From a virus: DNA of 64,000 nucleotides. Shown piece after piece: positions 1 to 47,900 of the stretch. A program made the translations under genes and the position numbers. Numbering within the stretch: the stretch's first letter is position 1; the number at the start of each line of letters is the position of its first letter. The DNA lies in the IMG/VR virus record IMGVR_UViG_3300020205_002848, positions 1 through 64,000 of that record. One strand, 5' to 3'. Under the pieces are notes generated by a model. The model saw only the letters and a program-made list of their open reading frames with translations, was not told where the DNA came from and searched no databases.

Positions 1-3000
1 CTTGATCCTGATGTGCCTCTTGTACCCGAAGTACCGAAAGTACCACTTGTACCAGATGATCCAGCAGTTCCAGATGTTCCGTTAGCACCACTTGTTCCAC
101 TTGAACCCGATGTACCGTTAGCACCACTTGTTCCACTTGAACCCGATGTACCGTTAGCGCCACTTGTTCCACTTGATCCTGATGTACCTCTTGTGCCCGA
201 AGTACCGAAAGTACCACTTGTACCAGATGATCCAGCAGTTCCTGAAGTACCGTTAGCACCACTTGTTCCACTTGATCCTGATGTACCGAAAGTACCACTT
301 GTACCAGATGATCCAGCAGTTCCGGATGTTCCGTTAGCACCACTTGTTCCACTTGAACCCGATGTACCTCTTGTACCTGAAGTACCGAAAGTACCACTTG
401 TACCAGATGATCCGTTAGCACCACTTGTTCCAGCAGTTCCAGATGTTCCGTTAGCACCACTTGTTCCAGCAGTTCCAGATGTTCCGTTAGCACCACTTGT
501 TCCAGCAGTTCCAGATGTTCCGTTAGCGCCACTTGTTCCACTTGATCCTGATGTGCCTCTTGTACCCGAAGTACCGAAAGTACCACTTGATCCTGATGTC
601 CCAGCAGCCCCTGATGTTCCACTAGTTCCTGCTGCCGTCCAAGACGCATTACCTGCGGCGTCTGATGTTAAAACATATCCAGCAGTTGGTGACGTTGTCA
701 TTTGGAAGTTTGTGGTTTTTGTTTTTCCACTTACGTCTAATTTTTCGGTTGGAATTGTTGTTCCAATACCAACATTACCAGTATTATCTATAACAAATTG
801 TGTAGTATCTGGGTTAGTACCATCTTCAACAACAAATGAATTACCTGTTCCTGTTTGTGTAATTCTAACCATATCATCCGTAGTTGAACCAGAAGCAATT
901 ATTAAAGGTGATGATTGAGAACCAGAAACGTGAAGTTTAGCATTAGGTGTAGCTGTCCCTATACCTACATTGCCTCCACCAATACCTAGCGCTATATCAT
1001 TTGTTGAATTTCTATTTATATAAAATGCTGTGTTATCTGACTCAATAGTACCTTGACCGGGATATATTGTAAAAGCTCTGTTATTAAGATCAGCATACAC
1101 TCTAAGTTGTGGATTATTCGATCTAATATCTAACTCATGACCAGGAGCAGTTGTACCAATACCAACATTACCGGAAGCATTAATAACGAATGGTGTTGCA
1201 TCTGGATTAGTTGAATCTTCTACAACAAATGCATTACCGCTACCCAATTGTGTTATTCTAACCATATCATCAGTAGTTGATCCAGAAACTTTTAATTGAG
1301 AGAAAGTTGCTCCCGCTGCTCTAATATTTGAATATGATGTTACAGTAACACTTCCATTAATACTTGAAGAATCATTTGTTTGAGCAAATACAAACTCATC
1401 AGATGATTCAGACCATATAAAGGCTTGTGTAGCCCCAGTTCCCCTGTTAATCATCAAACCAGAATCTAAAACCGGAGCTCCTGTTTGAGTACCAGCTAAT
1501 AATATGATTGGGTCTTGTACAAATAAATTTTGTGAATTTATTGTTGAAGATGTTCCAGTTACAACTAAGTTACCCGTTAATGTTAACGTTGAACCATCAA
1601 AAGTTAAATTTGATTCTACAGTAGCATTAGGAGCTGACCCATTTAATGTAATTAAACCATTATCGGTTGTACCAGTTAATAGTAGAAGACCTGATGATCC
1701 AGATGTACCTCTTGTTCCTGATGTACCGAAAGTTCCACTTGTTCCTGATGTACCTCTTGTTCCAGATGATCCACTTGTTCCAGCACGCCTCTCTAAACTA
1801 ATTCCACAAAGTCCAGCCACAGCAGGACTACTATTCCAAACACCACTTAACGGTGAGACCGTATCGATTCCATAAGTTCTATAAGTACCAGAATCAGCAA
1901 CACTAGTAATTCGAAGTGTCCCAAAGTTAGTAACCGCTAATGTATTATCATTAGACCTAATTATAAATATATCACCAATGGATATCGTATCTAAATAATT
2001 AACTTGACTATTACCCAAAGCATCAGTCTCATTAATATAGACAGTGTTTATATTACCAAATCCAGAACTCCAGTTATAGTGAAATTCACCAACTGCTGGA
2101 GCTGCTATCCCTGTAGCAGAACCACAATTATATAAAAGTGCTGCTAATTGACCTTGTTCACCACTTGTACCTGATGAACCTCTTGTCCCTGATGTACCTG
2201 ATGAACCACTTGATCCTGATGTCCCTCTTGTTCCAGATGATCCAGCAGTTCCTGATGATCCTGATGTCCCTCTTGTACCACTTGTACCACTTGTTCCGGA
2301 TGATCCAGCAGTTCCTGATGAACCACTTGTTCCAGCATCACCAGTTCTATAAAAAGTAATTACACACTCTTCTAGATTTGATGGTATTGTACCACTTATA
2401 CCAATAACTGTAAGACTAAACCAACCGACATTTGTAACTAAAGAGATTAGTTGAAATTGATTAAATGTCGTATCCGAATTTGAATTAGATTTTATTTCAA
2501 TTATACCTTTAACTGGATTGGTACTATTATCCCAAGCCCCTATCGATGTCGCAAAACCCTGGTTATTTATATCAGCTGAACTAATAGCTATCGTAGCTGT
2601 TGTACCAACACTTGTTGTATCATATCTGAAATTACCAGTTCCTGGATCATTACCAACTAGTAATGATGAATCGAAATTAAATCTAATACCAGCAGATTCA
2701 CCTTGTGTCCCTGAAGTACCAGCAGTCCCAGATGTACCTCTTGTTCCAGATGATCCAGCAGTTCCTGAAGTACCTCTTGTTCCAGATGATCCAGCAGTTC
2801 CAGATGATCCAGCAGTTCCAGATGATCCATCAGTTCCTGAAGATCCACTTGTTCCAGATGATCCACTTGTTCCGGATGATCCAGCAGTCCCGGATGATCC
2901 AGCAGTCCCGGATGATCCAGCAGTTCCAGATGATCCAGCAGTTCCAGATGATCCAGCAGTTCCAGATGATCCAGCAGTCCCGGATGATCCACTTGTGCCA

Positions 3001-4705
3001 GATGATCCACTTGTTCCGGATGATCCAGCAGTTCCGGAAGTTCCGTCAATTCCAGATGTTCCAGCAGTTCCAGATGATCCAGCAGTCCCGGATGATCCAC
3101 TTGTACCAGATGATCCAGCAGTCCCGGATGATCCACTTGTACCAGAAGATCCAGCAGTTCCAGAAGATCCAGCAGTCCCGGATGATCCACTTGTGCCAGA
3201 TGAACCACTTGTGCCAGATGAACCACTTGTACCAGATGATCCGGCAGTTCCTGAAGTACCTCTTGTTCCGGATGATCCAGCAGTCCCGGATGATCCAGCA
3301 GTTCCAGATGATCCAGCAGTTCCAGATGATCCAGCAGTTCCTGAAGATCCACTTGTACCAGATGTACCGTTATCACCACTTGTACCAGATGACCCAGCAG
3401 TTCCAGATGTACCGAAAGTACCACTTGTTCCAGATGATCCAGCAGTTCCTGAAGTACCTCTTGTCCCAGATGACCCAGAAGTTCCAGATGATCCATAAGC
3501 TGATGATGTCCATGATGCCAACCCAGTAGCATCAGAAACTAAATAGTATCCATTAGATGCACCTGTTGTTACTTTTAGCTGAGAGAAGGTTGCACCTCCA
3601 GCTCTAATATTTGAATATGTTATAATATCTATATTACCGAATAATGTATGATTGGATTTAGTAGAAGCGAAAATAAATTCATCTTCCGACTCATCCCAAA
3701 CAAACGCTTGTGTTGCCCCAGTTCCTCTATCTACGAACATACCCGCATCAACAGAAGGAGTAGACTGACTATGAGCCAGAACAAATATAGAATCACTAAC
3801 AACTAAACTAGTAGTATCAATTGTAGAAGAAGACCCAAGAATAGAAAATGTACCAATAATTTGAACAGACCCATTAATAACTAATGAATCACCATCAAAT
3901 GTCATATTAGATTCAGCAACTGCTGAATTTGAACTCCCATCAGAAGTTAATATTCTATTATTACCCGGATTTGAAATAGTATTGAATCCAGTCCCTGAAG
4001 AACCAGATGTAGCAGAAGACCCACTTGTACCGGCAGTTCCGGATGATCCAGCAGTCCCGGATGATCCACTTGTTCCAGATGATCCAGCAGTTCCAGATGA
4101 TCCACTTGTTCCTGAAGATCCAGCAGTTCCAGATGATCCACTTGTCCCAGATGATCCAGCAGTTCCAGATGATCCAGCAGTCCCGGATGATCCACTTGTA
4201 CCAGATGATCCACTTGTACCAGATGATCCACTTGTTCCAGATGACCCAGCAGTCCCAGATGACCCAGCAGTCCCAGATGACCCAGCAGTTCCTGAAGATC
4301 CACTTGTTCCAGATGATCCAGCAGTTCCAGATGACCCAGCAGTCCCAGCAGTCCCAGATGACCCAGCAGTCCCTGAAGATCCACTTGTTCCTGAAGATCC
4401 ACTTGTCCCAGATGACCCAGCAGTCCCTGAAGATCCACTTGTTCCTGAAGATCCAGCAGTTCCAGATGATCCAGCAGTTCCAGATGACCCAGCAGTCCCA
4501 GATGACCCAGCAGTCCCAGATGACCCAGCAGTTCCTGAAGATCCACTTGTACCAGATGACCCAGCAGTTCCAGATGATCCAGCAGTTCCTGAAGATCCAC
4601 TTGTTCCAGATGACCCAGCAGTTCCAGATGATCCAGCAGTTCCAGATGACCCAGCAGTTCCAGATGATCCAGCAGTTCCAGATGACCCAGCAGTTCCCGA
4701 AGTAC
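1..4705 (-). repeat. Coding tandem 9/18-nt repeats encoding (G-T-S/G-S-S/G-T-A)n at about 1-640, 1690-1785, 2150-2340, 2700-3500 and 3990-4705
   Basis: Repeated units such as ccagatgat/ccagcagtt/ccacttgtt; Gly is every third residue on the minus strand. Confidence 0.95.
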
Positions 4706-5039
4706 CAACAACACTAGTATCAACTGTTAATAACCAGTCTGACCCATTACTCTGTAAGGTAATACTTTGATTTTGCAAAAGTGATTTGGTTAACAAACCA
4801 TCAATTGTTTGTGATAGTGTGGTACCTACAGTTATTAATCCGCTTCCGCTATTCTTAATAACATATATTTTACCAACTACACCAATAGATGTCGGTAAAA
4901 GAACATTAAATGTACCAGAGATACAATCAATAAGGTAATCATCAGATATTATAGTGTATGCACTATTTACTGAAACATAAGGAAATGTTACACCTCCTAA
5001 AGATACAAGGCCTCTCCTTGCTACGAATTCATTAGCCAT
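1..5039 (-). CDS. Very long tail-fibre-like virion protein with five Gly-X-Y (GTS/GSS/GSA) repeat tracts; 3' end runs off the window
   Basis: ATG at 5039 (MANEFVARRGLVSLGG...); the same frame reads GTSGS at positions 3-17 and was open where spot-checked. Absent from the ORF track because its stop lies outside the window. Contains ESNLTFDG..DSGL.INRG.GATQAFIW modules and GIGTT.P repeats typical of fibres. Confidence 0.85.
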   Translation of the reverse strand, partial: MANEFVARRGLVSLGGVTFPYVSVNSAYTIISDDYLIDCISGTFNVLLPTSIGVVGKIYVIKNSGSGLITVGTTLSQTIDGLLTKSLLQNQSITLQSNGSDWLLTVDTSVVGTSGTAGSSGTAGSSGTAGSSGTAGSSGTAGSSGTSGSSGTAGSSGTAGSSGTSGSSGTAGSSGTAGSSGTAGSSGTAGSSGTAGSSGTSGSSGTAGSSGTSGSSGTSGSSGTAGSSGTAGTAGSSGTAGSSGTSGSSGTAGSSGTAGSSGTAGSSGTSGSSGTSGSSGTSGSSGTAGSSGTAGSSGTSGSSGTAGSSGTSGSSGTAGSSGTSGSSGTAGSSGTAGTSGSSATSGSSGTGFNTISNPGNNRILTSDGSSNSAVAESNMTFDGDSLVINGSVQIIGTFSILGSSSTIDTTSLVVSDSIFVLAHSQSTPSVDAGMFVDRGTGATQAFVWDESEDEFIFASTKSNHTLFGNIDIITYSNIRAGGATFSQLKVTTGASNGYYLVSDATGLASWTSSAYGSSGTSGSSGTRGTSGTAGSSGTSGTFGTSGTAGSSGTSGDNGTSGTSGSSGTAGSSGTAGSSGTAGSSGTAGSSGTRGTSGTAGSSGTSGSSGTSGSSGTSGSSGTAGSSGTAGSSGTSGSSGTAGSSGTSGSSGTAGSSGTAGTSGIDGTSGTAGSSGTSGSSGTSGSSGTAGSSGTAGSSGTAGSSGTAGSSGTAGSSGTAGSSGTSGSSGTSGSSGTDGSSGTAGSSGTAGSSGTRGTSGTAGSSGTRGTSGTAGTSGTQGESAGIRFNFDSSLLVGNDPGTGNFRYDTTSVGTTATIAISSADINNQGFATSIGAWDNSTNPVKGIIEIKSNSNSDTTFNQFQLISLVTNVGWFSLTVIGISGTIPSNLEECVITFYRTGDAGTSGSSGTAGSSGTSGTSGTRGTSGSSGTAGSSGTRGTSGSSGSSGTSGTRGSSGTSGEQGQLAALLYNCGSATGIAAPAVGEFHYNWSSGFGNINTVYINETDALGNSQVNYLDTISIGDIFIIRSNDNTLAVTNFGTLRITSVADSGTYRTYGIDTVSPLSGVWNSSPAVAGLCGISLERRAGTSGSSGTRGTSGTSGTFGTSGTRGTSGSSGLLLLTGTTDNGLITLNGSAPNATVESNLTFDGSTLTLTGNLVVTGTSSTINSQNLFVQDPIILLAGTQTGAPVLDSGLMINRGTGATQAFIWSESSDEFVFAQTNDSSSINGSVTVTSYSNIRAAGATFSQLKVSGSTTDDMVRITQLGSGNAFVVEDSTNPDATPFVINASGNVGIGTTAPGHELDIRSNNPQLRVYADLNNRAFTIYPGQGTIESDNTAFYINRNSTNDIALGIGGGNVGIGTATPNAKLHVSGSQSSPLIIASGSTTDDMVRITQTGTGNSFVVEDGTNPDTTQFVIDNTGNVGIGTTIPTEKLDVSGKTKTTNFQMTTSPTAGYVLTSDAAGNASWTAAGTSGTSGAAGTSGSSGTFGTSGTRGTSGSSGTSGANGTSGTAGTSGANGTSGTAGTSGANGTSGTAGTSGANGSSGTSGTFGTSGTRGTSGSSGTSGANGTSGTAGSSGTSGTFGTSGSSGTSGANGTSGTAGSSGTSGTFGTSGTRGTSGSSGTSGANGTSGSSGTSGANGTSGSSGTSGANGTSGTAGSSGTSGTFGTSGTRGTSGS

Positions 5040-5118
5040 TAATTTAATTTTCTTTTTTCACTTTCCAAAAGAAGTTGTTAGCTATATATATTAAATATAT
5101 TTTATCTAAAAAAGAAAA

Positions 5119-5820
5119 TTACAACCCAAATCTTGATTTTGTGGTATTATAGTTCTGTGAAATCTCAGATTGTGATAAAGTTTTACTATAAACAAAAGTA
5201 GCGGATATTCTACCTGGGAAATACCATGTCCTAGTTGGACTAGAATAAGCACCCAATCCAAAATACAAACTAGTATTTAAATAACTACCATTAACACCAC
5301 TAATACTATTCTCTTTAACACCATTCACATATATAGACTTAGTACCAGTTGATGAATCATATGTACAATATATATTATACCATTTACCAGCTACCCAGTT
5401 ATTAGTAGTTGTTAATAAATTATCATTAGGTGTTTTAGTCTCAAATGTTATTTGACCACCCGAATTTAGAAAATAAATGTAATTATCAGTAGTATCCTGA
5501 GCCTCAAATAACATATAATAATCATTATTTGAAGAACTTATAGTAGATGTGGGTGAAAACCAAATTCCAAATGAATAATTATCTATTATATTATTATCAG
5601 ACAACTGAGGAATTGAAACATACTCATTCAACCCTGTCATTAAAAAACAACCTTTGTTATCCGATAAAAATGGAGGGGAACCGAGTAAAGAAGAATCTTT
5701 AAAACTCTTACTAGTATCAAACCAAGTATCACCAGAACCTGAATAAGATTTACTATTACCAGCGTCTAAATAAAGTATTAAACTATCGTTAATTACTTTA
5801 GGTGAATAATGAAAAGCCAT
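5119..5820 (-). CDS. LamG/concanavalin A-like lectin domain virion protein
   Basis: LILYLDAGN..SY.GSG.TW.D start; WYNIYCTYD..KSIYVNG; F.G.I....VY.K.LS..EI.QNY end. Confidence 0.8.
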   Translation of the reverse strand: MAFHYSPKVINDSLILYLDAGNSKSYSGSGDTWFDTSKSFKDSSLLGSPPFLSDNKGCFLMTGLNEYVSIPQLSDNNIIDNYSFGIWFSPTSTISSSNNDYYMLFEAQDTTDNYIYFLNSGGQITFETKTPNDNLLTTTNNWVAGKWYNIYCTYDSSTGTKSIYVNGVKENSISGVNGSYLNTSLYFGLGAYSSPTRTWYFPGRISATFVYSKTLSQSEISQNYNTTKSRFGL

Positions 5821-5821
5821 A

Positions 5822-8128
5822 TTATATACCTCTTATTATAGTTTTCGCAGTCCATCCAGTAGTAGTAGAAACGCCTTGTAAGACAGCATAAGTACCTGAA
5901 ATAACAAATGAAAATGTAAATCCCGAAGTGGTTCCAATATCCATAGTTGAAGTATCGGTATATTTAATTGTACTCCCTTGCCAAACAGCAGTTAATGTAC
6001 CAGCTCTCAAATTAGAACCATTAGAAATATTATAATCAACATGAGCACTTGTATAAGATGCAGTTGCGAATGAGTAAATAGAAGAAGATGTTGTACCAAT
6101 AGTCGCCTTTTTAGTGGTGTAAAGTGATTGAGCTTGATAATCTCCTATAATTGTAGTATTATCAGAAAAGACTTCTAAAATAGGGAGTCCTGATATGTCA
6201 TTAACACTAAATAAAGACCCAACTAAGCTATCATTAACACTAAATAACTCACCATTAGTACCATTAACAGAAAATACTGTTGAATTAGCAGAAGAACCAA
6301 TTACTGTTAATACACTTGCAGTTCCTAAAATAGTAACTTTAGAAGATGTAGAAACAGTACCTATACTAACATTTACACCATTATCATAAATAGAACTAGT
6401 TGATGATAAATTATTTGAAGATAACCATCTTGGTACATAATTGGTAGTCCCTGAAGCAGTAACTACATTTAAACTTGATAAAGATGTCCACGTTCCAATT
6501 CCAACCGAGTCAGAAGATAATAAATATCCACTAGCTGCCCCGTATGTTATTTTAATTTGAGAAGCGGTTAATCCACCAACACTTAAATTAGAATATCCAG
6601 TAATATTTATATTTCCAATTACATCAGATGCATCATCAGTTGATATTAAAGCAAATTCATCTAAAGATTCATCCCAAATAAAAGCTTGTGTAGCCCCACT
6701 CCCTCTATTTATCATTAATCCAGAATCCAACGTAGGTGCTCCTGATTGAGTAGATGCTAATAAAATTAAAGGGTCTTGTACTAATAAATTTTGAGTATTT
6801 ACAGTTGTTGATGTTCCGCTTATTGTTAAATTACCAGAAATAACAGCATCACCATAAACATTTAATACAGAACCATCAAATGTTAAATTAGATTCAACTG
6901 TACCATTTGGAGCTGAACCATCTAATGTAATTAAACCATTATCGGTTGTACCTGTTAAAGATAGCAAACCTGATGTACCTGCTGTACCTGCTGTACCACT
7001 TGTTCCTGCTGACCCAGATGTTCCACTTGTTCCTGCAGTTCCACTTGTTCCACTTGTTCCATCAAGACCAGATGTTCCACTTGTTCCCATACTAACAGCA
7101 TTATCAACATATGCTTTATCCACTAATGAGTGAGTAACAAATGTTGCTGAATAATCAGCATCATAAACCAATCCCTCACCATTTGTTATACCAACAGATC
7201 CAGAATTAGCAACGAATGATAAATCACCACCAGTTGCAACTAAATCTATACCAGTATCACCCAATATTTGAATATTACCAATTCCAGCATCTAAACTAAT
7301 AAAACCAGCTTCAACATCAAAGACAGAACCAGTAAGTGTAATATAACCCGAATTACCGATAGTTAAATCATATCCACTACCATTTATTAATGTATTTTGT
7401 GATAATGTACCACCTAATGAAACAATGTCTGAAATAATTGATAATCCATTACCCGTATTAACATCTAAAGTAATAAATCCAGAAGTACCACCTCCAGATA
7501 AACCATCACCAGCAGTAACACCAGTTATGAAATCACCATTAATTATAGAAACTGCATTATCAACATATGATTTATCAACTAATGAGTGAGTAACAAATGT
7601 TGATGAATAGTCGGTAACATATACCAACCCTTCTCCATTTGAAATATTAACAGATCCAGAATTAGCAACCAGTGATAAATCCCCACCAGTTGAAATAATA
7701 TCTATACCACTATCACCTAATATCTGAACAGATCCTGTACCAGAATCTAAACTGATAAAACTAGATTCAACATCAAAGACCGAACTAGTAAATAAAATAT
7801 AATCAACATTTCCTACAGTAAAGTCATAATCAACTCCTGTAAATGAAACGCTATTTGTAGAAATAATAAAATCGGTGTTATTAGCAGATAAAGAAATATT
7901 ATTATCACTATAACCGACAACTGAATCTAGTCCAGTATTACCATCAATTCCAACTTTAAAATTAGATTGTGTTGATTGAACATATAATTGACCATAAATA
8001 TTAAATTTATTATCAGATTGGCTCCAATTTAATCTATCATAATTTTCACTTACAACACTATTTGTTCCTAAGAAGAGAACAGATCCTTGTGAAGCTCCGT
8101 GTATTTGTTTAATATCTTGTTGAGCCAT
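5822..8128 (-). CDS. Tail fibre/virion protein with internal duplication and a short GTS repeat
   Basis: Duplicated GEGLVY..DYS.TFVTHSLVDK.YVDNAVS block; shares the ESNLTFDG/DSGLMINRG module with the 1-5039 protein. Confidence 0.75.
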   Translation of the reverse strand: MAQQDIKQIHGASQGSVLFLGTNSVVSENYDRLNWSQSDNKFNIYGQLYVQSTQSNFKVGIDGNTGLDSVVGYSDNNISLSANNTDFIISTNSVSFTGVDYDFTVGNVDYILFTSSVFDVESSFISLDSGTGSVQILGDSGIDIISTGGDLSLVANSGSVNISNGEGLVYVTDYSSTFVTHSLVDKSYVDNAVSIINGDFITGVTAGDGLSGGGTSGFITLDVNTGNGLSIISDIVSLGGTLSQNTLINGSGYDLTIGNSGYITLTGSVFDVEAGFISLDAGIGNIQILGDTGIDLVATGGDLSFVANSGSVGITNGEGLVYDADYSATFVTHSLVDKAYVDNAVSMGTSGTSGLDGTSGTSGTAGTSGTSGSAGTSGTAGTAGTSGLLSLTGTTDNGLITLDGSAPNGTVESNLTFDGSVLNVYGDAVISGNLTISGTSTTVNTQNLLVQDPLILLASTQSGAPTLDSGLMINRGSGATQAFIWDESLDEFALISTDDASDVIGNINITGYSNLSVGGLTASQIKITYGAASGYLLSSDSVGIGTWTSLSSLNVVTASGTTNYVPRWLSSNNLSSTSSIYDNGVNVSIGTVSTSSKVTILGTASVLTVIGSSANSTVFSVNGTNGELFSVNDSLVGSLFSVNDISGLPILEVFSDNTTIIGDYQAQSLYTTKKATIGTTSSSIYSFATASYTSAHVDYNISNGSNLRAGTLTAVWQGSTIKYTDTSTMDIGTTSGFTFSFVISGTYAVLQGVSTTTGWTAKTIIRGI

Positions 8129-26485: not shown

Positions 26486-26953
26486 ATGATAACTAAAATA
26501 TCCATATTAGGTAAAGAAAATTCTAAAAAAACTAGGTTAACTAAAGATTTAGCATGTTATTATAATACTAATTTTGTATTGGATTATAAATATCTTATTT
26601 TTGGGAGTTTTGAAAAAACTCCAGAATGTGAGGATTACCTTAAAATTTCCAATGATAGACTATCATTGGAAAATTGGCTTTTAAAGAGTTCCAATAAGAT
26701 ACTATTTTCAGATACTGATGACTTTAGTTTATATTTAGATGTTTCAAAAAAATTCCCAAAAAATAAAAAAGTAAAAGAGGAAATTCTATCAAGAGTTTTA
26801 AATAAAAAGTTTGATTATTATTTTCTAATAAATCCTACCGATGAAATAATTTCAGAAGCTAATAAATTAAAACTAAATATCGAAATATTTAAGGGAGAGT
26901 ATGATGAAATTAAAAATAAATGTATATCATTTATAAATAAGTCTATAAATTAA
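26486..26953 (+). CDS. NadR/AAA_28-like kinase domain with a degenerate P-loop
   Basis: KISILGKENSKKTRLTKDLA versus NadR-type ILGxESSGKSTL..LA; ILFSDTD. Confidence 0.55.
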   Translation: MITKISILGKENSKKTRLTKDLACYYNTNFVLDYKYLIFGSFEKTPECEDYLKISNDRLSLENWLLKSSNKILFSDTDDFSLYLDVSKKFPKNKKVKEEILSRVLNKKFDYYFLINPTDEIISEANKLKLNIEIFKGEYDEIKNKCISFINKSIN

Positions 26954-28046
26954 ATTTTTCTAAAAATTCTGATTCAATTAGATAACCTTTGGTAGAATTA
27001 ATATATCTCTTAGTTATACATAAATTCTCTATAGATCCAATCGTTATTGGATCTATAGAGAATTTAAATCCATAATACACAGATACTTTATGATCAATAG
27101 TTGGGAAAAATCTATGAGTGTGACTTTTTGATAAGTATCCTTTTATAAATTCATCATCGTAATAATCAACGCCATTCCATTTTTCATATAAAAACTTCTT
27201 GTTAGAGTTGGTAATTCTTCTAACCAACTTTTTATACTTATACCAATCACTCGTTTCGGAATCAGATATAATGGTTCCGTTAGATTCTTTAGTATATTTT
27301 ATTTTTCGTTGTATATCACCAACTTTACTAACATTATCAACTCCATATCTTTCTAGACAAGTTTCTCTACACTTTTTAATAGTTTCTGATAATTTTGATT
27401 TAAAAATGGATTTCCAATAGTCAGTCTTTGATAAATATTCATTACCATATCTTTCTAAAAATGTTATTTTTATCTTTTCAATAGTTTGTATAATTTTAGA
27501 ATCAATTGTCTTCTTAAATTGGTCAGTCTTTGAGTATGAATCAACTCCATATTTTTCCAACATAGTTTTTTTAGATTTGTCTTTAAACTCATCAGATGAC
27601 ATCCACTTTCTATTCATCTCTCTACTTTCATCAGTTTTGAAATAAGAGTCAACTCCATATTTTTCCAACATAGTTTTTTTACCCTTTTCAGAACCCTTTT
27701 GAATACCTTTCCATTTAATACTCTCTGTCAATTTAAACTCATCAGTCATTGAATATGACTTAACGCCCCATTTTTCTAAACATGTTTTCTCCTTTACATG
27801 ATTTTTACACATAAAGCAAGAATAATATCCTTTGTCACTTCTGTTTTTATTAACTAAATATTTCGAATAGGGTATATGGTTTTCGGAACTACATATTTCA
27901 CAAATAGCTGTTATTTTATTCTTTGTACCCACTGGTAAGTCATTAACATTGACGAAAATCTCATTAGATATTGTATATCCTAAATTTAAATAGTAAGATC
28001 TATTTCTCAAATTAACTTTAACCAAAACTTTATCCTCCTTAATCAT
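26943..28046 (-). mobile_element. Free-standing HNH-type homing endonuclease with repeated KKT(M/C)LE(K/R)YGV motifs
   Basis: N-terminal CEIC/CFMC zinc site, five LE(K/R)(Y/W)G repeats, C-terminal TIDHKVS...NLCIT..INSTKG; divergent from polB across a 77-bp gap. Confidence 0.75.
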
Positions 28047-28123: not shown

Positions 28124-29589
28124 ATGACAAGAGAAGAAAAAATATTCAAGATCGAGTCTTTAAAAAAACAAGCGAGCGAGCTAAAGAAGGAAGCGGATTA
28201 CTACAACGCACTTCAGCTCGCTCTTGTTTAGCCCCCGGTATTTATTATCGGGGGCAAAAGAGACTAAAATTAGTTCTAAATGGAAGTTACGGCGCATTCG
28301 CTACATCCTACTTTATATTATATAATAACCACGTAGCTGGTACAATTACTGCACAAGGCAGGGACCTTACACAAACAATGGACAGGGTCAATGAAGACTA
28401 TTGGTATAACCAGTGGCACAACGACCATGAACTTCATTTTAAATTAGGTATTAAAGATGTAAGTGAAATATCTAAAAGTGAACCAGTTTCTATATATGCT
28501 GATACTGATTCATTATTCGTTTCTTTCAAACCAGCAATTGACCATTGTAATTGGAAAGATTTAATATTCAATAAAGAATATTTAGATTCGATTGATGAGA
28601 AGTTTATCATATTAACAAATGATGAGACAAAAACAAATAATCCTAATTGTTTAGGAATCGCATCTAACTTAGATGATTTATCTGAATTAATAAAAAATGA
28701 TTATAAAGTTTTATTATTCGATGGTAACTTTATTAAAGACAGAGGGTTGAATAAGATGATAAAAAATGGAGTATTCACATCTAGTATTGGGTGGAATTGG
28801 CCAAGTGAGCAAGACTTTATACAGGGTGTTGATCATTTTAGATTTGGTGGATACTTTAAAAAATGTTTAGAAGATTACGCATCATCTTTTGGTGTTGAAA
28901 ATAAAGAAGATTTTGAATTAGAAAGAATATCTGAATCGATTATCAATCTTGCTAAAAAGAAATATATTTGTCACATAACATATGAAGATGGCATCCCATT
29001 TGATAGACTGACTTATCTTTATCCAAAAGGTGTTGAGCTTGTTAGATCGTCTACTCCGGCATTTGCTAGAGATAAGATTGTTGGTATTGTTAAGTATCTA
29101 TTTACACACCCAGATACCTTTAATATAAAAGATTTATTAAAATTAGTTAAGGGTTTAAGGAAAGAGTTTGAGTTAGCTGATATTGATGATATCGCAATGC
29201 AGTCTTCTTGTTCTAATTATGATATTAAGGTTCTAAATGATAAATCATTACCTCTTCAATTTGTATCAGGTGCTCACTTTGCGGTTAAATCAGCAGCTCA
29301 CTATAACTATCTTTTATCAAAGAGTAAAGACCATCAACAAAAGTATGAGTTTATTAAATCAGGGACTAAGATTAAATACTTTGTATGTAAAGATAAATCG
29401 GTAACTGATATGTTTGCTTATATTAGAGGTTCTTATCCACATGAATTTGCACCACCTATTGATTATGATACACAGTTTTCCAAATCTATTTTATCACCGG
29501 TGAATTCTATTATAGAGCCATTGGGAATGCCAGAGATTACTAAAAGGTTATCAGTTGTAATGGATATATTTAGCGGTTTTTCGAAATAG
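28124..29589 (+). CDS. polB: Family-B DNA polymerase, C-terminal half (gp43B-like), interrupted by a 41-nt insert; join(28124..28225,28267..29589), about 474 aa
   Basis: ATG 28124 gives MTREEK...YYNALQLAL; after the insert comes KLVLNGSYGAF (motif B), then ITAQGR, IYADTDS (motif C), KKKY and KGVELVRSSTP. The ORF track start at 28378 lacks motif B. Confidence 0.88.
28226..28266 (+). other. 41-nt stop-containing hairpin insert (candidate ribosomal bypass gap or mini-intron)
   Basis: GTT TAG, then a GCCCCCGGTA-TTTAT-TATCGGGGGC stem; removing it restores Q-x3-K-x3-N-x2-YG. Confidence 0.8.
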
Positions 29590-42692: not shown

Positions 42693-43022
42693 TTACTCAC
42701 CTTGTTTTTTAGGTCTTGGTTTTCTACGAGTTTTAGCTTTAGGTTTTTTCTCACCTTCAACCTCTTCAACTTTAGGTTGTTCAACTTTAGTAGATTTAAC
42801 ATTAGCCTTTATTTCTTTAGCTGTTACCTTTTCTTCTTCAACTTTAGGTTGAGCAGCTTTAGGTTGAGCAGCTTTAGGCTTTCTTTGAGTTTTAGGTTGT
42901 TCAGCTTTAGGAGCTTCATTCTTAACCTCATTCTTAACAACAGGAGATTTTTCAATACTCACTGTTTCCACTTTAGTTTGATCCTTACCAAAACTAAAAA
43001 ATCTTTTGATAGATTCCCACAT
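42693..43022 (-). CDS. Lys-rich low-complexity protein
   Basis: PKAAQ repeats, basic tail. Confidence 0.6.
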   Translation of the reverse strand: MWESIKRFFSFGKDQTKVETVSIEKSPVVKNEVKNEAPKAEQPKTQRKPKAAQPKAAQPKVEEEKVTAKEIKANVKSTKVEQPKVEEVEGEKKPKAKTRRKPRPKKQGE

Positions 43023-43123
43023 AATTAGATTTATTTTTTTTGTATATATAGAAAATATTCATCTCCCTATATAAAAAACCACAAAAAATTCGATGAAAAG
43101 ATGGATTTTTTATATATAAATTT

Positions 43124-44596
43124 ATGAAATTTAGATATGACAAAGAAACCGAAGAGATAGTAGTATCAGAAGCTTCAAGAATTGAATATCACCAATTAGA
43201 AATTTGGTTGACTCGTCATGTCAAGGGATATAAGTATATGCCGGCATTTAAAATGGGAGTTTGGAATGGACAACAAACATATTTTAGAAACGGTAGATTC
43301 AATCTAGGACTTTGGAAAGAAGCTATGAGGGGTTGTAAAGAAATAGAAATGCCTTTTATACTTGAAAACAAAAATGATTTTCCACTTAATAGAGATGTTA
43401 CTTTAGAAGGGGTTAAAGAATTTTGTAAAGATTTTTTTAAAGAACATAAAGTTAGAACAAAAGATGGTCAATGGATACCATTTGCTCCATATGATCATCA
43501 AATAGAATCTGCTTATAAAATTCTTAAAAATAGATATTGCATGGCAGAGGTAGCAACATCAGGTGGTAAATCTCTAATAATATCTATTGTCATGTTTTAC
43601 ACATTGAAAAATATAGACGAAACTGCTAAATTTTTAATTATTGTACCATCAATAACTTTAGTAACACAATTTTATGATAATATAATAGAATATAATTATG
43701 GTATTAATAACTTATTGGAGATGAGAGAAAAAGAATCTGACCACATTTTAACCGGTACTCACTTACCATGTGATGTTAGAGTTGAAGAGGTTATGTCAGA
43801 GAGACCTAGAAAATTCTCAGGTACACAAAATGCTAATGTTTATGTTGGTACTTATCAATCATTAGAGAAATGGCCAAAAGAGTTTTTTCAACAATTTCAC
43901 ACAGTTGTAACAGATGAGGCACATGGGGCTAAAGCAAAAACAATTACTACTATTCTAGAGAATACTTTCAAACATGCTTACTCGAGATTTGGAGTTTCTG
44001 GTACATTTCCAGAAGATGATACTTGTGAAATATTAACAATACAATCAGTGTTGGGTCCAAAAATAACAGAGGTCTCTGCTAATGAATTAAAAGAAAAGGG
44101 AATTATAACACCTATGGAAATAAAAGCTGTTATAATGAATCACAATGACTTAGAATTTGATGAGAGAATGACTATTATTAAAAGAAGTGGTAATGGTAAA
44201 GATGCTTTCGAATTGGAAAAACAATACATACATGCTTCTGATAGAAGATTGGACTTTATTAAAAAAATAGTTGATAAATGTGATTCAAATACTTTACTAC
44301 TTTTTCACACAATTGAATATGGTCAAAGAATATTTAATAAACTAAAAGAGGATCTACCTGATAAAGAATTTTACTATATTGATGGTGAGGTTTCTGGTAA
44401 AAAAAGAGAAGTAATTAAAAAGGAAATGGAAATAACCAAAGAGAAAGTCGAATATACGATTTTGAATTTTGGTGATTATGAGATTGAGTTTAAATCAGAC
44501 TTTAAAATATTACTAAGTGATGGATTATTTAAAAAAGCATGTGATATATCACCAGATGATGATATTGATGATGATTTTATAAATAAATATAAATAA
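43124..44596 (+). CDS. uvsW: UvsW-like SF2 helicase, N-terminal part (motifs I-IV), ending in a Hint-like tail
   Basis: MPAFKMGVWNG, PYDHQ, ATSGGKS, IIVPSITLVTQ, TYQSL, DEAH, GVSGT, YIDGEV; motifs V and VI are absent. Confidence 0.9.
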   Translation: MKFRYDKETEEIVVSEASRIEYHQLEIWLTRHVKGYKYMPAFKMGVWNGQQTYFRNGRFNLGLWKEAMRGCKEIEMPFILENKNDFPLNRDVTLEGVKEFCKDFFKEHKVRTKDGQWIPFAPYDHQIESAYKILKNRYCMAEVATSGGKSLIISIVMFYTLKNIDETAKFLIIVPSITLVTQFYDNIIEYNYGINNLLEMREKESDHILTGTHLPCDVRVEEVMSERPRKFSGTQNANVYVGTYQSLEKWPKEFFQQFHTVVTDEAHGAKAKTITTILENTFKHAYSRFGVSGTFPEDDTCEILTIQSVLGPKITEVSANELKEKGIITPMEIKAVIMNHNDLEFDERMTIIKRSGNGKDAFELEKQYIHASDRRLDFIKKIVDKCDSNTLLLFHTIEYGQRIFNKLKEDLPDKEFYYIDGEVSGKKREVIKKEMEITKEKVEYTILNFGDYEIEFKSDFKILLSDGLFKKACDISPDDDIDDDFINKYK

Positions 44597-44604
44597 ATAT
44601 AAAT

Positions 44605-44947
44605 ATGGCTAAAATAATAGACAAAAGAAAAATAATCAGAGAAGAAGGGGCGACTAAAGTTTTAGTCGCCTCTTACTGAGGACGGTACATTATCCACAGG
44701 AGTATCGATAAATGCTATTTTTAATGTAATATTCGCTGATTCTTTTAAATCGGAGCAAATTATTATACAATCAATTGGTAGAGCACTTCGTTTACACTCT
44801 GATAAAAAGAAAGCAAATATCTTTGATTTGGTTGATATTTTTAATTCCAATAATATGAATAATATATTATTTAGACACTTTAAAGAAAGAGAAAAATTTT
44901 ACACAAAAAGACAATATCCTTACAAAATAATCAAAGTTAATCTTTGA
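44605..44947 (+). CDS. uvsW: UvsW helicase C-terminal part interrupted by a 7-nt insert; join(44605..44676,44684..44947), about 111 aa
   Basis: MAKIIDKRKIIREEGATKVLVASY, TGA, then in the +1 frame GTLSTGVSI (motif V), QSIGRALR (motif VI) and IFDLVD...RHFKEREKFY; not in the ORF track. Confidence 0.85.
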
Positions 44948-44977
44948 ATGTAGGGTGTTGTTTAAAATATATAATTT

Positions 44978-47900
44978 ATGGGCGGCTTTAGAAATAAATT
45001 AAATTCACAACAAAAAATAAACATGGATGTTATAATCGATACCTTGAAAAAGGGAGGTTATACAAACCCATATACGATAGCTGGAATTTGTTCCATTATT
45101 AGCAAAGAGAGTGTATTTAATCTAATTAGAGAAAACATGAACTATTCAACTGATAGAATAGGTCAAGTTTGGGGTAGATTGAGGGGTAGAAGTGACTTAG
45201 GTCACAATCCTGAAAAGTTAGCAAATACGGTATATGGCGGTAAATATGGAAATGCTGCACAAGATGGGTATCGATATAGAGGCGGTGGATTCAACCAATT
45301 AACATTCAAGGGGAATTATGATTTTTACGGTAGTAAAAGTGGAACTCAATTGGGTAGTAATCCTGATTTAATAGGTGATATATTAACTGCTTCTAAAGTA
45401 ATTTTATATTATTATAAATCAAACTATTCAATTCTTAAAAATAGTGGGGCTCTAAAAGAATATGGTGCATCGGGTGATGGGAATACTTTTACTGACCTTA
45501 AAGGGGCCATATTGGGAGCTTATCATGCAACAGCCGGTGTTGGTAAAAAAGTATCATATGTTAAGGGATTATTAACCAGTGATTCACTGGGTGGTATGAC
45601 AAAAGCACAGGCAAATGGGCCTGATATATTAGCCTATGTTAAATCATTTTCGGGTTTAACACAACCACCACCATCGCTGGTACCATCTGATGGTGGATCA
45701 ACATCAACAACAGCAGCCGAATCACCCGCTACTTCAGTGGTAACTCCACCAGAGCCTAAGTATGTTATTAATAATGTAAAATTAATTAAAAAAAGCGGAC
45801 CAGGTGAGATAATGGGTGTAGTTGAAGTCCCTGCTTATTTAGGAGAGGCTTCATTTTCAGGTATTCAATTTGACGAACCAGGTGATTATGTTATACATGC
45901 TGTCGGTGATGATGATTCCATCGAACCACTTGAATTTAAAATAACGGTTAGTGGCGATCCATCTCCAAAAAGTCAAGAGAAAGCAGCTGCTTATGAAAAA
46001 TTAGTAGCTGATGGTAATAGACCAATTATTGCTCAAATAGACCAACCAAGTGTTTCATTACCACCAATGAAATATGATGTAGCCCCGGCTGATGCGCAAA
46101 CAAATACAGATATAATTACATCTATAGGTTTGAATCCATTTTTGTGGCTAGGTGGATATCAAATAAGAGAAGCTGATATAAAATCACTTAGCTTATATCA
46201 TCAAGGAATTACACCATGTGCTCAAGTTGTGTTTAATGACGCTCAGGGTATAATGAAAAGAGAGGGATTTCCTTTGAATAATGCAACATTTGAAATTTTC
46301 CTAAACTCTAGTTCTCCATATTTGAAATCAATTCATATGAAATTTAGATTAGTAAATTTTCAAGAAAATTCTGATAAAAGTATGACAATTACAGGTATGA
46401 TAGAGTTAAAAGACTTTTATAAGATAAATTATAACTCATATAGTGGAACCTCATTTGAAGTTTTAAGATCAATATCAAAAGAGTTACAACTTGGATTTAA
46501 CTCAAATATAAATTCTACATCGGATTCTATGAAGTGGACTAATGTTGGTAAGACATTTAACGAATTTATGAGTAGTATAATGCAATTTTCCTATATAGAT
46601 GATAAATCATTTGTAATGGGTTATATAGATTTTTACTACTGTTTCAACTATGTAGACTTGGAAAAAGAATGGTTGAGAAATATAGGAAATGATGTTGGTA
46701 TTAGTTCAGGGGGTATTGGTAGATTAGCAACGACTAAATCAGATGAACAGATAGCAAGGCTATATTTATCAAATGAGAAATCAACAAATGGTAGTGATTT
46801 ATATTTCCAAAATTACACTGTTAAAAATGACTCAACTGAAAAATCAATTACAAAAGGTCAAAGAACTGTTGTGAAATATTATGATACATATTCAAAGTCT
46901 TTTTTAATTTTTGACATTGATGGATTAACAACACCTGGTGATGACAATATAATACTTAAAGGCAATCCAGCCGATTCAAAAGATATGGAAGAAAACTATA
47001 GAACAGTTGATGGTGGTAGATTCGATTTATCTAATGTTCATAAAGAATATCTATATGCAAAAACATTAAATGATAGAAATCTAAGTGATTTGAGTAAAAT
47101 ATCGGTAACACTGGAGATACCAGCTTTGAATTTTAATTTTTATAAATTTCAAAAGGTTGGTATACAATTTGTCAATGAGGCTCAAACTATTTCCGACCCA
47201 AGTCTTATACAAGAGAGGATATCCGGGGAATGGATGATAACAGAAATAAAATATATTTGGATAAAAAATAAGATAAACCAAACTCTAACTTGTGTAAGAA
47301 AAGAACTTGGTAAAATAATAGAAGAGAAAAGACAAGATAGTGGTAATAAAGAACCTGAAAAGAAATCAGGGGGTACTGTTGCACACGATGGATACTTTGG
47401 GAATGAGGCTGTTCCTGCTGTGCCACCAAATAGTATATTTAAAATAGGTGAAACTTATACTGTTCAAGATAAAGATGGAAGATTATTTACAGTGACAATT
47501 GAAAATTTAGAATCTAATGGAAATGATATACAAGGATATATACTGGAAAATTCAGAACAACCAGAATTAAAACCAATAATAAATACTGGTACTTCAGGAA
47601 CATCTGGTATAAATGGGACAAGTAGCACATCTGGTGTAAATGGAACATCTGGTGTAAATGTAACTCCAGTTACTTCAGCTTCACAGACTTCCGGTCCTAT
47701 AAATTTTGTAATAGGTGATTCAATAGCTGCTGGTTTGGCTAAACTAGCCATATCATCAACAAATAGAAGTGGGGCTTATAATGATAGAAATGGTAAAAGA
47801 GTGCCACCATCAAAAGATGAATGGGGTATATCACAAGTTGGGGCAAACCCTGGTGCTATCTTAGGATTTATAAATGAAATAGGTAGTAGTAAATTATCCG

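Follow-up and report, generated by a model that had tools for sequence, protein, structure and literature searches.

A homing-endonuclease cassette leaves a short, probably bypassed coding gap in motif V of a phage UvsW-like helicase gene

In phage T4, expression of the gene 39/mobA/gene 60 element involves a 50-nt translational bypass (bioRxiv 10.1101/2022.08.31.505936; Wills et al., bioRxiv 10.1101/2024.12.09.627546). Cassettes of the T4 MobA/gene 60 type are found in topoisomerase genes only, with gaps of 20–50 nt, and throughout the gene 60 family the take-off and landing codons are always cognate and a take-off stem-loop is present (Manning & Atkins, bioRxiv 10.1101/2022.08.31.505936). 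For gene 60, the forward driver that is proposed is a 5′ stem-loop, or ‘pairing of exiting mRNA’. Related arrangements include phage Aeh1 NrdA, whose gene is split by a free-standing MobE and whose tails are reportedly needed for the function of the re-assembled enzyme (PMC3045599); the low-level stop-hopping of Escherichia coli, in which nine nucleotides reportedly specify one amino acid; and the short natural non-coding inserts thought to be hopped in Magnusiomyces mitochondria (byp) and at UUA-led candidate sites in Streptomyces phages (PMC10732093). Within the literature searched, the only natural programmed bypass reported from phages is, besides those UUA-led candidates, that of the topoisomerase gene 60 family, and a uvsW cassette with a coding gap is not described. 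Here we analyse a UvsW-like helicase gene in 64,000 nt of viral DNA (positions 1 to 64,000 of IMG/VR record IMGVR_UViG_3300020205_002848; hereafter the window) that is split by the remnant of a homing-endonuclease cassette and interrupted again, inside helicase motif V, by a stop-led gap of 7 nt. Comparison of related loci points to a short programmed translational bypass from UAC to GAC as the best-supported way in which this gap would be read, with a probability that we put at about 0.7.

The record behind the window is a viral contig of 78.5 kb; the runs that contain the stretch are freshwater and lake metagenomes, and among named relatives, uncultured phage genomes of 634–642 kb come nearest. 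The open reading frame (ORF) at 43124–44596, termed ORF1, corresponds to the N-terminal two thirds of a superfamily 2 (SF2) helicase. Pfam matches of the helicase are to DEAD (4e-15), ResIII (7e-14) and Helicase_C, together with a match to UvsW_N (0.002) that lies below the cut-off. The helicase gene is single and uninterrupted in relatives L001, L002, L003 and L012 (L numbers label the loci compared), and an intact relative aligns over its full length with T4 UvsW at 28% identity (E 2e-53), which places IIVASYGVFSTG of T4 UvsW opposite VLIASYGTLSTG; the T4 motif was given correctly in a preliminary description of this DNA, made from its letters alone. The N-terminal domain and, via the intact relative, motifs I–VI assign the split protein to the UvsW-like SF2 type. 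The parts of the locus are as follows.

43124–44449, plus strand: N-terminal part of the UvsW-like SF2 helicase (UvsW_N, motifs I–IV), collinear with intact relatives
44450–44596, plus strand: cassette-derived C-terminal extension (CTE, 48 aa) of ORF1, with its TAA stop at 44594–96
44597–44604, no strand: 8-nt spacer where relatives hold a 315–321-aa Mob-type HNH homing-endonuclease gene, lost in the window
44605–44676, plus strand: 24-codon start of the C-terminal helicase piece, from ATG 44605 to ...KVLVASY
44605–44655, plus strand: cassette-derived N-terminal extension (NTE), a 17-residue leader
44656–44676, plus strand: KVLVASY, re-encoded in place of the parental stretch
44645–44674, plus strand: hairpin of 13 bp with a 4-nt loop, its 3′ arm extending to the first base of the take-off codon
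44674–44676, plus strand: take-off codon TAC (Tyr), which is TAY in 52/52 gap-bearing loci
44677–44683, plus strand: 7-nt coding gap TGAGGAC, with the stop TGA at 44677–79 and the near-cognate landing triplet GAC at 44681–83
44684–44947, plus strand: C-terminal helicase part (motifs V and VI), 87 codons plus TGA 44945–47, in the frame of ORF1

Relative to intact relatives the locus carries two inserts, one of 206 nt (44450–44655) and one of 7 nt (44677–44683). Their sum is 213 nt (3 × 71), so ORF1 and the C-terminal segment lie in a common frame, and only the 21 nt for KVLVASY sit in a different one. The two are jointly what remains of a homing-endonuclease cassette splitting the helicase gene; neither the longer insert nor the mobile-cassette context figures in the preliminary description. 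The reading given in the preliminary description holds throughout this region: the frame opened by ATG 44605 spans 24 codons and ends on TAC 44674–76 directly before TGA 44677, the +1 frame takes over with GTLSTG at 44684 and continues for 87 codons, and that frame is shut upstream by TAG 44663–65 and has no start codon. TGAGGAC, which that description took for an insert, is a true 7-nt insertion against the intact genes, and removing 44677–83 restores VASY-GTLSTG as in those relatives and in T4 UvsW; its further claim, that motifs V and VI can be reached only by recoding, is supported by 51 further distinct gap-bearing loci. The CTE is absent in intact relatives and is conserved at the protein level in split relatives (alignment A1, 18 invariant columns). 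In the 24-codon leader, 16 of 24 columns are invariant (alignment A2), and its first 17 residues are Lys/Arg-rich and conserved, equally so in split loci that lack a gap. Such gap-less loci are represented by L060 and four more lineages (six distinct sequences), in which the leader start runs directly into the C-terminal part.

The origin of the cassette is apparent from its relatives. An exact 30-mer spanning the gap recurs in a 249-kb contig (L082) whose helicase N-terminal part is only about 75% identical. There, ORF1 with a tail of about 50 residues is followed by a 317-aa ORF, an ATG overlapping the stop of that ORF, the leader, the hairpin and TAC-TGAGGAC-GGT. The 317-aa ORF has PHROG HNH/homing-endonuclease matches (phrog_12434, 8e-18; phrog_655, 1e-11) and is 26–37% identical to MobD/MobE-like genes of T4-like phages; a Pfam search with the nuclease gave no significant family and a PDB sequence search no match. 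An intact HNH Mob-family nuclease of 315–321 aa is present in 22 distinct gap-bearing relatives and absent in the window. In a quick tree of the helicase N-terminal part, cassette-bearing and plain genes alternate at the tips, and the close relatives L137 and L025 have flanks that are 95% and 89% identical, with a 1249-nt cassette in the one replacing about 52 nt in the other. This presence/absence polymorphism among close relatives shows, at the level of sequence comparison, that the cassette is mobile, and the same pair maps its 5′ border to between about 44430 and 44450.

Successive stages of decay can be found among the loci. The nuclease is intact and the gap present in 22 distinct loci; the nuclease is lost and the gap retained in the window and about 20 others; the gap is lost and the split retained in L060, L099, L118, L131 and L136; and the halves are re-fused in frame through both tails in L024. 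An essentially full-length nuclease ORF (303–321 aa) is accompanied by a gap in 22 of 23 loci, and in the gap-less split loci the nuclease is mostly decayed, the exception being L131. The most likely role of the gap, judged by the example of T4 MobA, would be to shield the genome that carries it from its own nuclease. Like the T4 mobA element, the cassette thus combines an HNH Mob-family nuclease gene by which an essential gene of DNA metabolism is split, a C-terminal tail added in frame, an N-terminal leader that carries the replaced stretch in re-coded form, presence and absence that alternate among close relatives, and a decay order in which the nuclease is lost, then the gap, before the halves are re-fused. 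Unlike the T4 element, its target is a UvsW-like helicase and not a topoisomerase, and its nuclease is distantly related: tblastn against T4 positions 1–7000 gave a 7-residue HNH-motif match in the decayed mobA region that is not significant (E 5.2). The helicase cassette therefore works like the gene 39/mobA/gene 60 element but is not a member of it.

How the gap may be read is best judged from its variants, which were collected from viral contigs and from metagenome contigs recovered in a protein-based scan with the 24-residue leader. There are 24 gap variants of 4–17 nt in 52 distinct gap-bearing loci, the window included, and in every locus the insert sits precisely at the junction of the Tyr codon and the Gly codon in motif V. 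Gaps of 7 nt (27 distinct loci) and 4 nt (12) are the most common, followed by those of 8 nt (4), 5 nt (3), 10 nt (2), 17 nt (2), 6 nt (1) and 9 nt (1); divided by three, the lengths leave a remainder of one in 41 loci and of two in 9, and are multiples in 2. A stop (TGA, TAA or TAG) leads the gap in 22 of the 24 variants, as in T4 gene 60, where the non-coding gap likewise opens with a stop directly after the take-off codon. The last gap triplet is UAY in 5 variants, GAY or AAY in 13, UAA or UAG in 5 and UUC in 1. This landing triplet is therefore within one mismatch of the Tyr codon in 24 of 24 variants, against a random expectation of 25%, and where it is NAY (18/24) it is each time the first NAY after take-off. 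Unlike those of the gene 60 family, where they are always cognate, landings are thus mostly near-cognate (NAY or UAR), and the gap, at 4–17 nt against 20–50 nt, is too short for a take-off stem-loop or a spaced mini-Shine-Dalgarno.

In five variants no single frameshift could carry a ribosome across. TAGTAA and TGAGGCTAA keep the frame but contain two stops each, TGAGTAG is blocked in the +1 frame by a stop, and in both 17-mers a TAA shuts the target frame right before GGN. Because of these five, bypass is the best reading: a hop from UAY over the stop-led gap to the triplet preceding GGN would be the only single mechanism that fits all variants. A 7-nt hop from TAC to the near-cognate GAC was the first option listed in the preliminary description, ahead of RNA excision and a +1 frameshift, and it is the one that the comparison of loci favours. 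On the nuclease tree, gap length was altered many times with no preference for multiples of three (from 8 to 5 to 4 nt in one clade, from 7 to 9 nt in another), and near-identical cassettes differ in landing, TAC in one and GAC in the other. Since these changes are not biased to three, we explain the excess of 7- and 4-nt gaps by descent from ancestors with gaps of these lengths and not by a frame constraint, which is an argument and not a test. An in-frame sense-codon insert was never seen at this site among the loci compared, so extra residues in motif V are apparently not tolerated.

The most conserved signal at the locus is the hairpin behind the take-off codon. The pairing of 44645–57 with 44662–74 (13 bp, one G-U) that the preliminary description reported forms the core of the minimum-energy fold of 44590–44720 (−29.6 kcal/mol, z = −4.4, 0/200 shuffles as good). 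All 52 gap-bearing loci form 11–13 of the 13 pairs (−12.8 to −22.3 kcal/mol) within a 30-nt stretch whose last position is the first base of the Tyr codon; six gap-less split loci form 7–11 pairs (−2.2 to −9.4 kcal/mol) and seventeen plain genes 5–9 (0 to −3.4 kcal/mol). In the corresponding alignment (A3), 97.1% of cells are paired, compared with at most 57% in controls with slid partners, and the covariation score is 0.230 versus 0.128 in shuffles, with 0/500 as high. The hairpin is hence conserved among insert-bearing relatives, with frequent compensatory changes: pair 17-32 occurs as GC 18, AU 15, GU 5 and UA 5 times with zero mismatches, and another pair as AU 20, GC 8, GU 5, UA 2 and CG 1. 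The structure belongs to the sense RNA, because its many G-U pairs would turn into C-A mismatches in the opposite strand, and its stem is G+C-rich within an A+T-rich genome (31.5% G+C in the window) and makes use of rare codons. Downstream of the landing site RNAalifold found no conserved structure, and the mean folding energy there is −8.6 kcal/mol with a gap and −8.8 kcal/mol without. Two further pairings had been suggested at the outset. The TCAG/CTGA extension of the stem is present in the fold of the window, but its 5′ arm varies among relatives (A3 columns 1–4), and the alternative CCTC/GAGG hairpin exists (−5.5 kcal/mol) but has 4–5 bp and is confined to relatives whose gap starts with TGAGG or TAGAGG; both were ruled out as general signals. 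In position, upstream and behind the take-off site, the hairpin resembles that of T4 gene 60, and its geometry is that proposed for the gene 60 5′ stem-loop, which is, however, the least conserved signal in that family.

Taken together, these features are consistent with the following course of events. A Mob-type HNH homing-endonuclease cassette invaded the helicase gene, replacing about 50 nt and bringing five elements: a C-terminal tail on the first half, the nuclease gene, a start with its 17-residue leader, the re-coded KVLVASY and the gap. In the window, the nuclease gene was later deleted while split and gap persisted. Translation of the second half would initiate at ATG 44605 and pause once UAC, bound by peptidyl-tRNA-Tyr, occupies the P site and UGA the A site. 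The 3′ arm of the hairpin spans the 12–13 nt behind the P-site codon, so it would be melted at take-off and could re-pair only as the mRNA moves forward; re-folding while the mRNA exits the ribosome may in this way favour forward movement. The tRNA would then re-pair 7 nt downstream on GAC through the two 3′ codon bases, and decoding would resume at GGU to give ...VLVASY-GTLSTG..., the wild-type motif V, with the expected junction peptide VLVASYGTLSTG... The two helicase pieces would finally assemble, probably aided by the two cassette-derived tails.

Several observations weigh against this account. The landing codon is cognate in only 17 of 52 loci (5/24 variants), and in the window GAC is mismatched with UAC at the first codon base. 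In two variants a near-cognate, or decoy, triplet precedes the landing triplet inside the gap. Two loci, L145 and L146, have gaps that lack the leading stop (CAAC and a 17-mer starting with CCC). The gaps with a remainder of one, 41 of 52 loci, are also readable by a +1 shift. A move of 4 nt allows only about four weak hairpin pairs, and because so little pairing is gained the push model is incomplete; the loss of the hairpin in gap-less loci could be mere co-conversion with parental sequence. The case for the hop is, moreover, comparative throughout. Concerning the two stop-less gaps, CCC is a rare codon (1.9 per thousand codons), and L145 and L146 are closely related cassettes from one sample, with 10 nt differences and 1 changed residue between their downstream frames.

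A +1 frameshift at UAC-UGA is the alternative that fares best. One base would be skipped and GAG GAC GGU read, giving VASY-ED-GTLSTG and the junction peptide VLVASYEDGTLSTG..., an outcome that is possible for the 7-nt gap of the window itself. As an account of the whole set of loci it is unlikely. Besides the many gaps of suitable length, it draws support from the stop in the A site, a classical +1 stimulator known from prfB (RF2), and an upstream hairpin that re-folds has reportedly been found by others to promote +1 movement. The prfB site, however, has a slippery CUU U preceded at 3 nt by a Shine-Dalgarno, and its shift is always +1. The window shares with it the A-site stop as a pause signal, whereas a slippery codon is absent, since UAC is unable to re-pair in the +1 frame (ACU), and there is no Shine-Dalgarno-like element 3 nt upstream, the nearest purine-rich run lying >20 nt upstream in the hairpin arm. 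The gap lengths across loci also span all three classes modulo three. On this alternative, the nine loci with a remainder of two would need the opposite, −1, shift, and the loci with gaps of 6, 9 and 17 nt or TGAGTAG would be dead; yet in the five variants unreadable by any shift the downstream frame is intact and constrained, and L142 (9-nt gap) and L149 (TGAGTAG) retain intact nuclease genes. The unbiased length changes on the nuclease tree and the lack of in-frame sense-codon inserts likewise speak against frameshifting and for the hop.

The constraint on the downstream frame is a general property of the locus. The C-terminal frame is intact over 86–99 codons in every gap-bearing locus, unless a contig end cuts the locus, and no disabling mutations, which the preliminary description had named as a sign against recoding, were found 3′ of the gap. 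The mean ratio of nonsynonymous to synonymous divergence (dN/dS) of this frame is 0.16 at a saturating dS of about 1.6, compared with 0.09 in gap-less genes, and the leader frame gives 0.08. Variants that no shift can read are constrained as much as the others: the downstream frames of L142 and L144 differ by 35 nt with zero amino-acid changes, those of L081 (17-nt gap) and L130 by 46 nt and 6 amino acids, and those of L149 and L148 by 47 nt and 7 amino acids. Strong purifying selection at saturated dS excludes a dead C-terminal segment, and on this evidence of selection the downstream segment is taken to be translated. Termination at UGA, with the C-terminal 87 residues either supplied by non-canonical re-initiation, which would make a three-piece helicase, or left unmade and the helicase inactive, is accordingly hard to sustain for the 52 loci and is in our estimate quite improbable. 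It would agree with a stop directly after the Tyr codon in 22/24 variants. There is, however, no ATG, GTG or TTG near the junction in the downstream frame of the window, a cut of motif V between Tyr and Gly would part the core strand from the loop, and the NAY/UAR landing triplet and the covariation of the hairpin would be left unexplained.

Removal of the gap from the RNA before translation, whether by hairpin-guided cleavage and ligation or by other processing, would match the observed independence from gap length and the specificity of the hairpin, with its many G-U pairs, for the RNA strand. Self-splicing would need far more than 4–17 nt, no Rfam intron or ribozyme lies in 43000–45500, the bulge-helix-bulge motif is absent, and removal gives no reason for a leading stop or a Tyr-like end triplet; this possibility is very improbable, and we know of no precedent for the removal of such a gap in bacteria or phages. 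The Rfam search of that interval (E 10 or lower) returned only chance eukaryotic snoRNA and lncRNA matches far under gathering scores. A self-splicing intron was ruled out in the absence of any group I/II intron or ribozyme match, and so was a split intein: the tail starts EYT..., the leader ends ...GAT before KVLVASY, catalytic residues are absent, and no Hint family was found at E 0.1 or lower, the fused form L024 with its insert of about 68 residues included.

An error of sequencing or assembly, or a disabling indel newly arisen in a decaying gene, is scarcely credible even though the window is a metagenome assembly whose gap just one independent contig reaches, since the same or related gaps recur in dozens of assemblies made independently from different samples, invariably at this codon border and in surroundings conserved at the protein level. 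That contig, from an unrelated viral-metagenome run, is identical to 44523–44684 (162 nt) and lends the gap some, if weak, support; contigs of four runs were compared, of which two yielded nothing and none covers the entire stretch. Whether the insert might be absent from reads had been raised in the preliminary description, and the same gap is present in independent assemblies (L100, L109, L153). The genetic code of the window is standard, because long ORFs end in TAA, TAG and TGA alike; an alternative code was thereby ruled out, and a recoded stop would in any case leave the frame unrepaired. A scan of the window for a special tRNA found zero tRNA genes. Other copies of 44440–44700 were not found within its own 78.5-kb record, so the stretch is not a dispersed repeat.

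The bypass proposed for this site also differs from the other systems outlined above. Aeh1 NrdA shares a free-standing Mob nuclease that splits an enzyme gene and cassette-derived tails; the coding gap is found here and none is described there, while assembly of the helicase from two pieces is presumed on this model. The hop proposed here resembles stop-hopping in E. coli, where peptidyl-tRNA makes a short hop over a stop to a similar codon a few bases on; those are rare laboratory events without stimulatory signals, whereas this site is fixed and conserved, has a covarying hairpin and lies in an essential motif. With the byp elements and the Streptomyces-phage candidates the locus shares short natural non-coding inserts thought to be hopped, but those are associated with GC clusters or rare UUA codons in other hosts, and a homing-endonuclease cassette is found only here.

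The same helicase gene is interrupted in other ways among the relatives. In the more distant helicases of L096, L097 and L098 (around 3000–4700), a homologous C-terminal tail and the split occur with no gap, and a GIY-YIG-like or a different HNH gene lies between the halves. L088 has an extra ORF at 3150–4323 between the tail and the HNH gene, which ends with a diverged motif V peptide (GTLTTGVSVNF...) and may be a rearranged or nested cassette. Inserts of 1.0–1.4 kb are present at the DEAH motif (reference residue about 266) in L062–L069, L076 and L081, and 50–70 residues upstream of it (about 197–217) in L072, L073, L078 and L080; L081 has two interruptions in its helicase gene. These DEAH-region inserts could be further introns, inteins or endonuclease cassettes.

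A second gap is present in the window, in a split DNA polymerase gene. The leader of this gene starts at ATG 28124 and ends CTT-GTT-TAG, and the C-terminal frame runs to 29589 on the plus strand. The take-off would be CTT 28223–25, followed by GTT TAG, and the landing CTA 28264, just before KLVLNGSYG (motif B) in a different frame. The gap of 38 nt is gene-60-like and contains a perfect G+C-rich hairpin, and a long 5′ stem extends to the take-off codon (fold z = −6.5). Different gap hairpins occupy the same place in the DNA polymerase genes of L161, L162, L173, L175 and L188, and at least six loci (L158–160, L164, L165, L170) have no gap and read through from the same leader. This gap raises the prior that ribosomes bypass in this host-phage system. 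Just upstream of the leader, at 26943–28046 on the minus strand, lies a 367-aa ORF with repeated KYGVDSY.KTD-like units, which may be the candidate homing endonuclease of the DNA polymerase cassette. In L167, L168 and L179 (around 2501–2540) the DNA polymerase frame is broken again a few codons past KLVLNGSY, which suggests another motif B insertion site.

A broader proposal, which we offer tentatively and consider rather doubtful, is that hairpin-driven hops with two-base re-pairing are a general and efficient mode of decoding in these large freshwater phages and their host, used at several replication genes (the helicase and the DNA polymerase, 28124–28266), and that homing endonucleases repeatedly create such sites as scars of self-immunity. 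If this were true, bypass would need far fewer signals than the gene 60 paradigm implies, and many ‘frameshifted pseudogenes’ in phage metagenomes would be functional. If bypass occurs at the helicase gene, its cassette would be an independent second family of natural programmed bypass. The loci already amount to a natural mutagenesis series, with 24 gap variants, cognate and near-cognate landings, and forms that keep or lack the nuclease and that keep or lack the gap, and the hairpin right behind the P site makes it testable whether pairing of the exiting mRNA drives forward movement. The locus also lends support to the view that coding gaps evolve to protect homing-endonuclease cassettes against themselves, and it carries a warning for annotation, in that stop-led micro-indels in conserved phage motifs should not be called pseudogenes.

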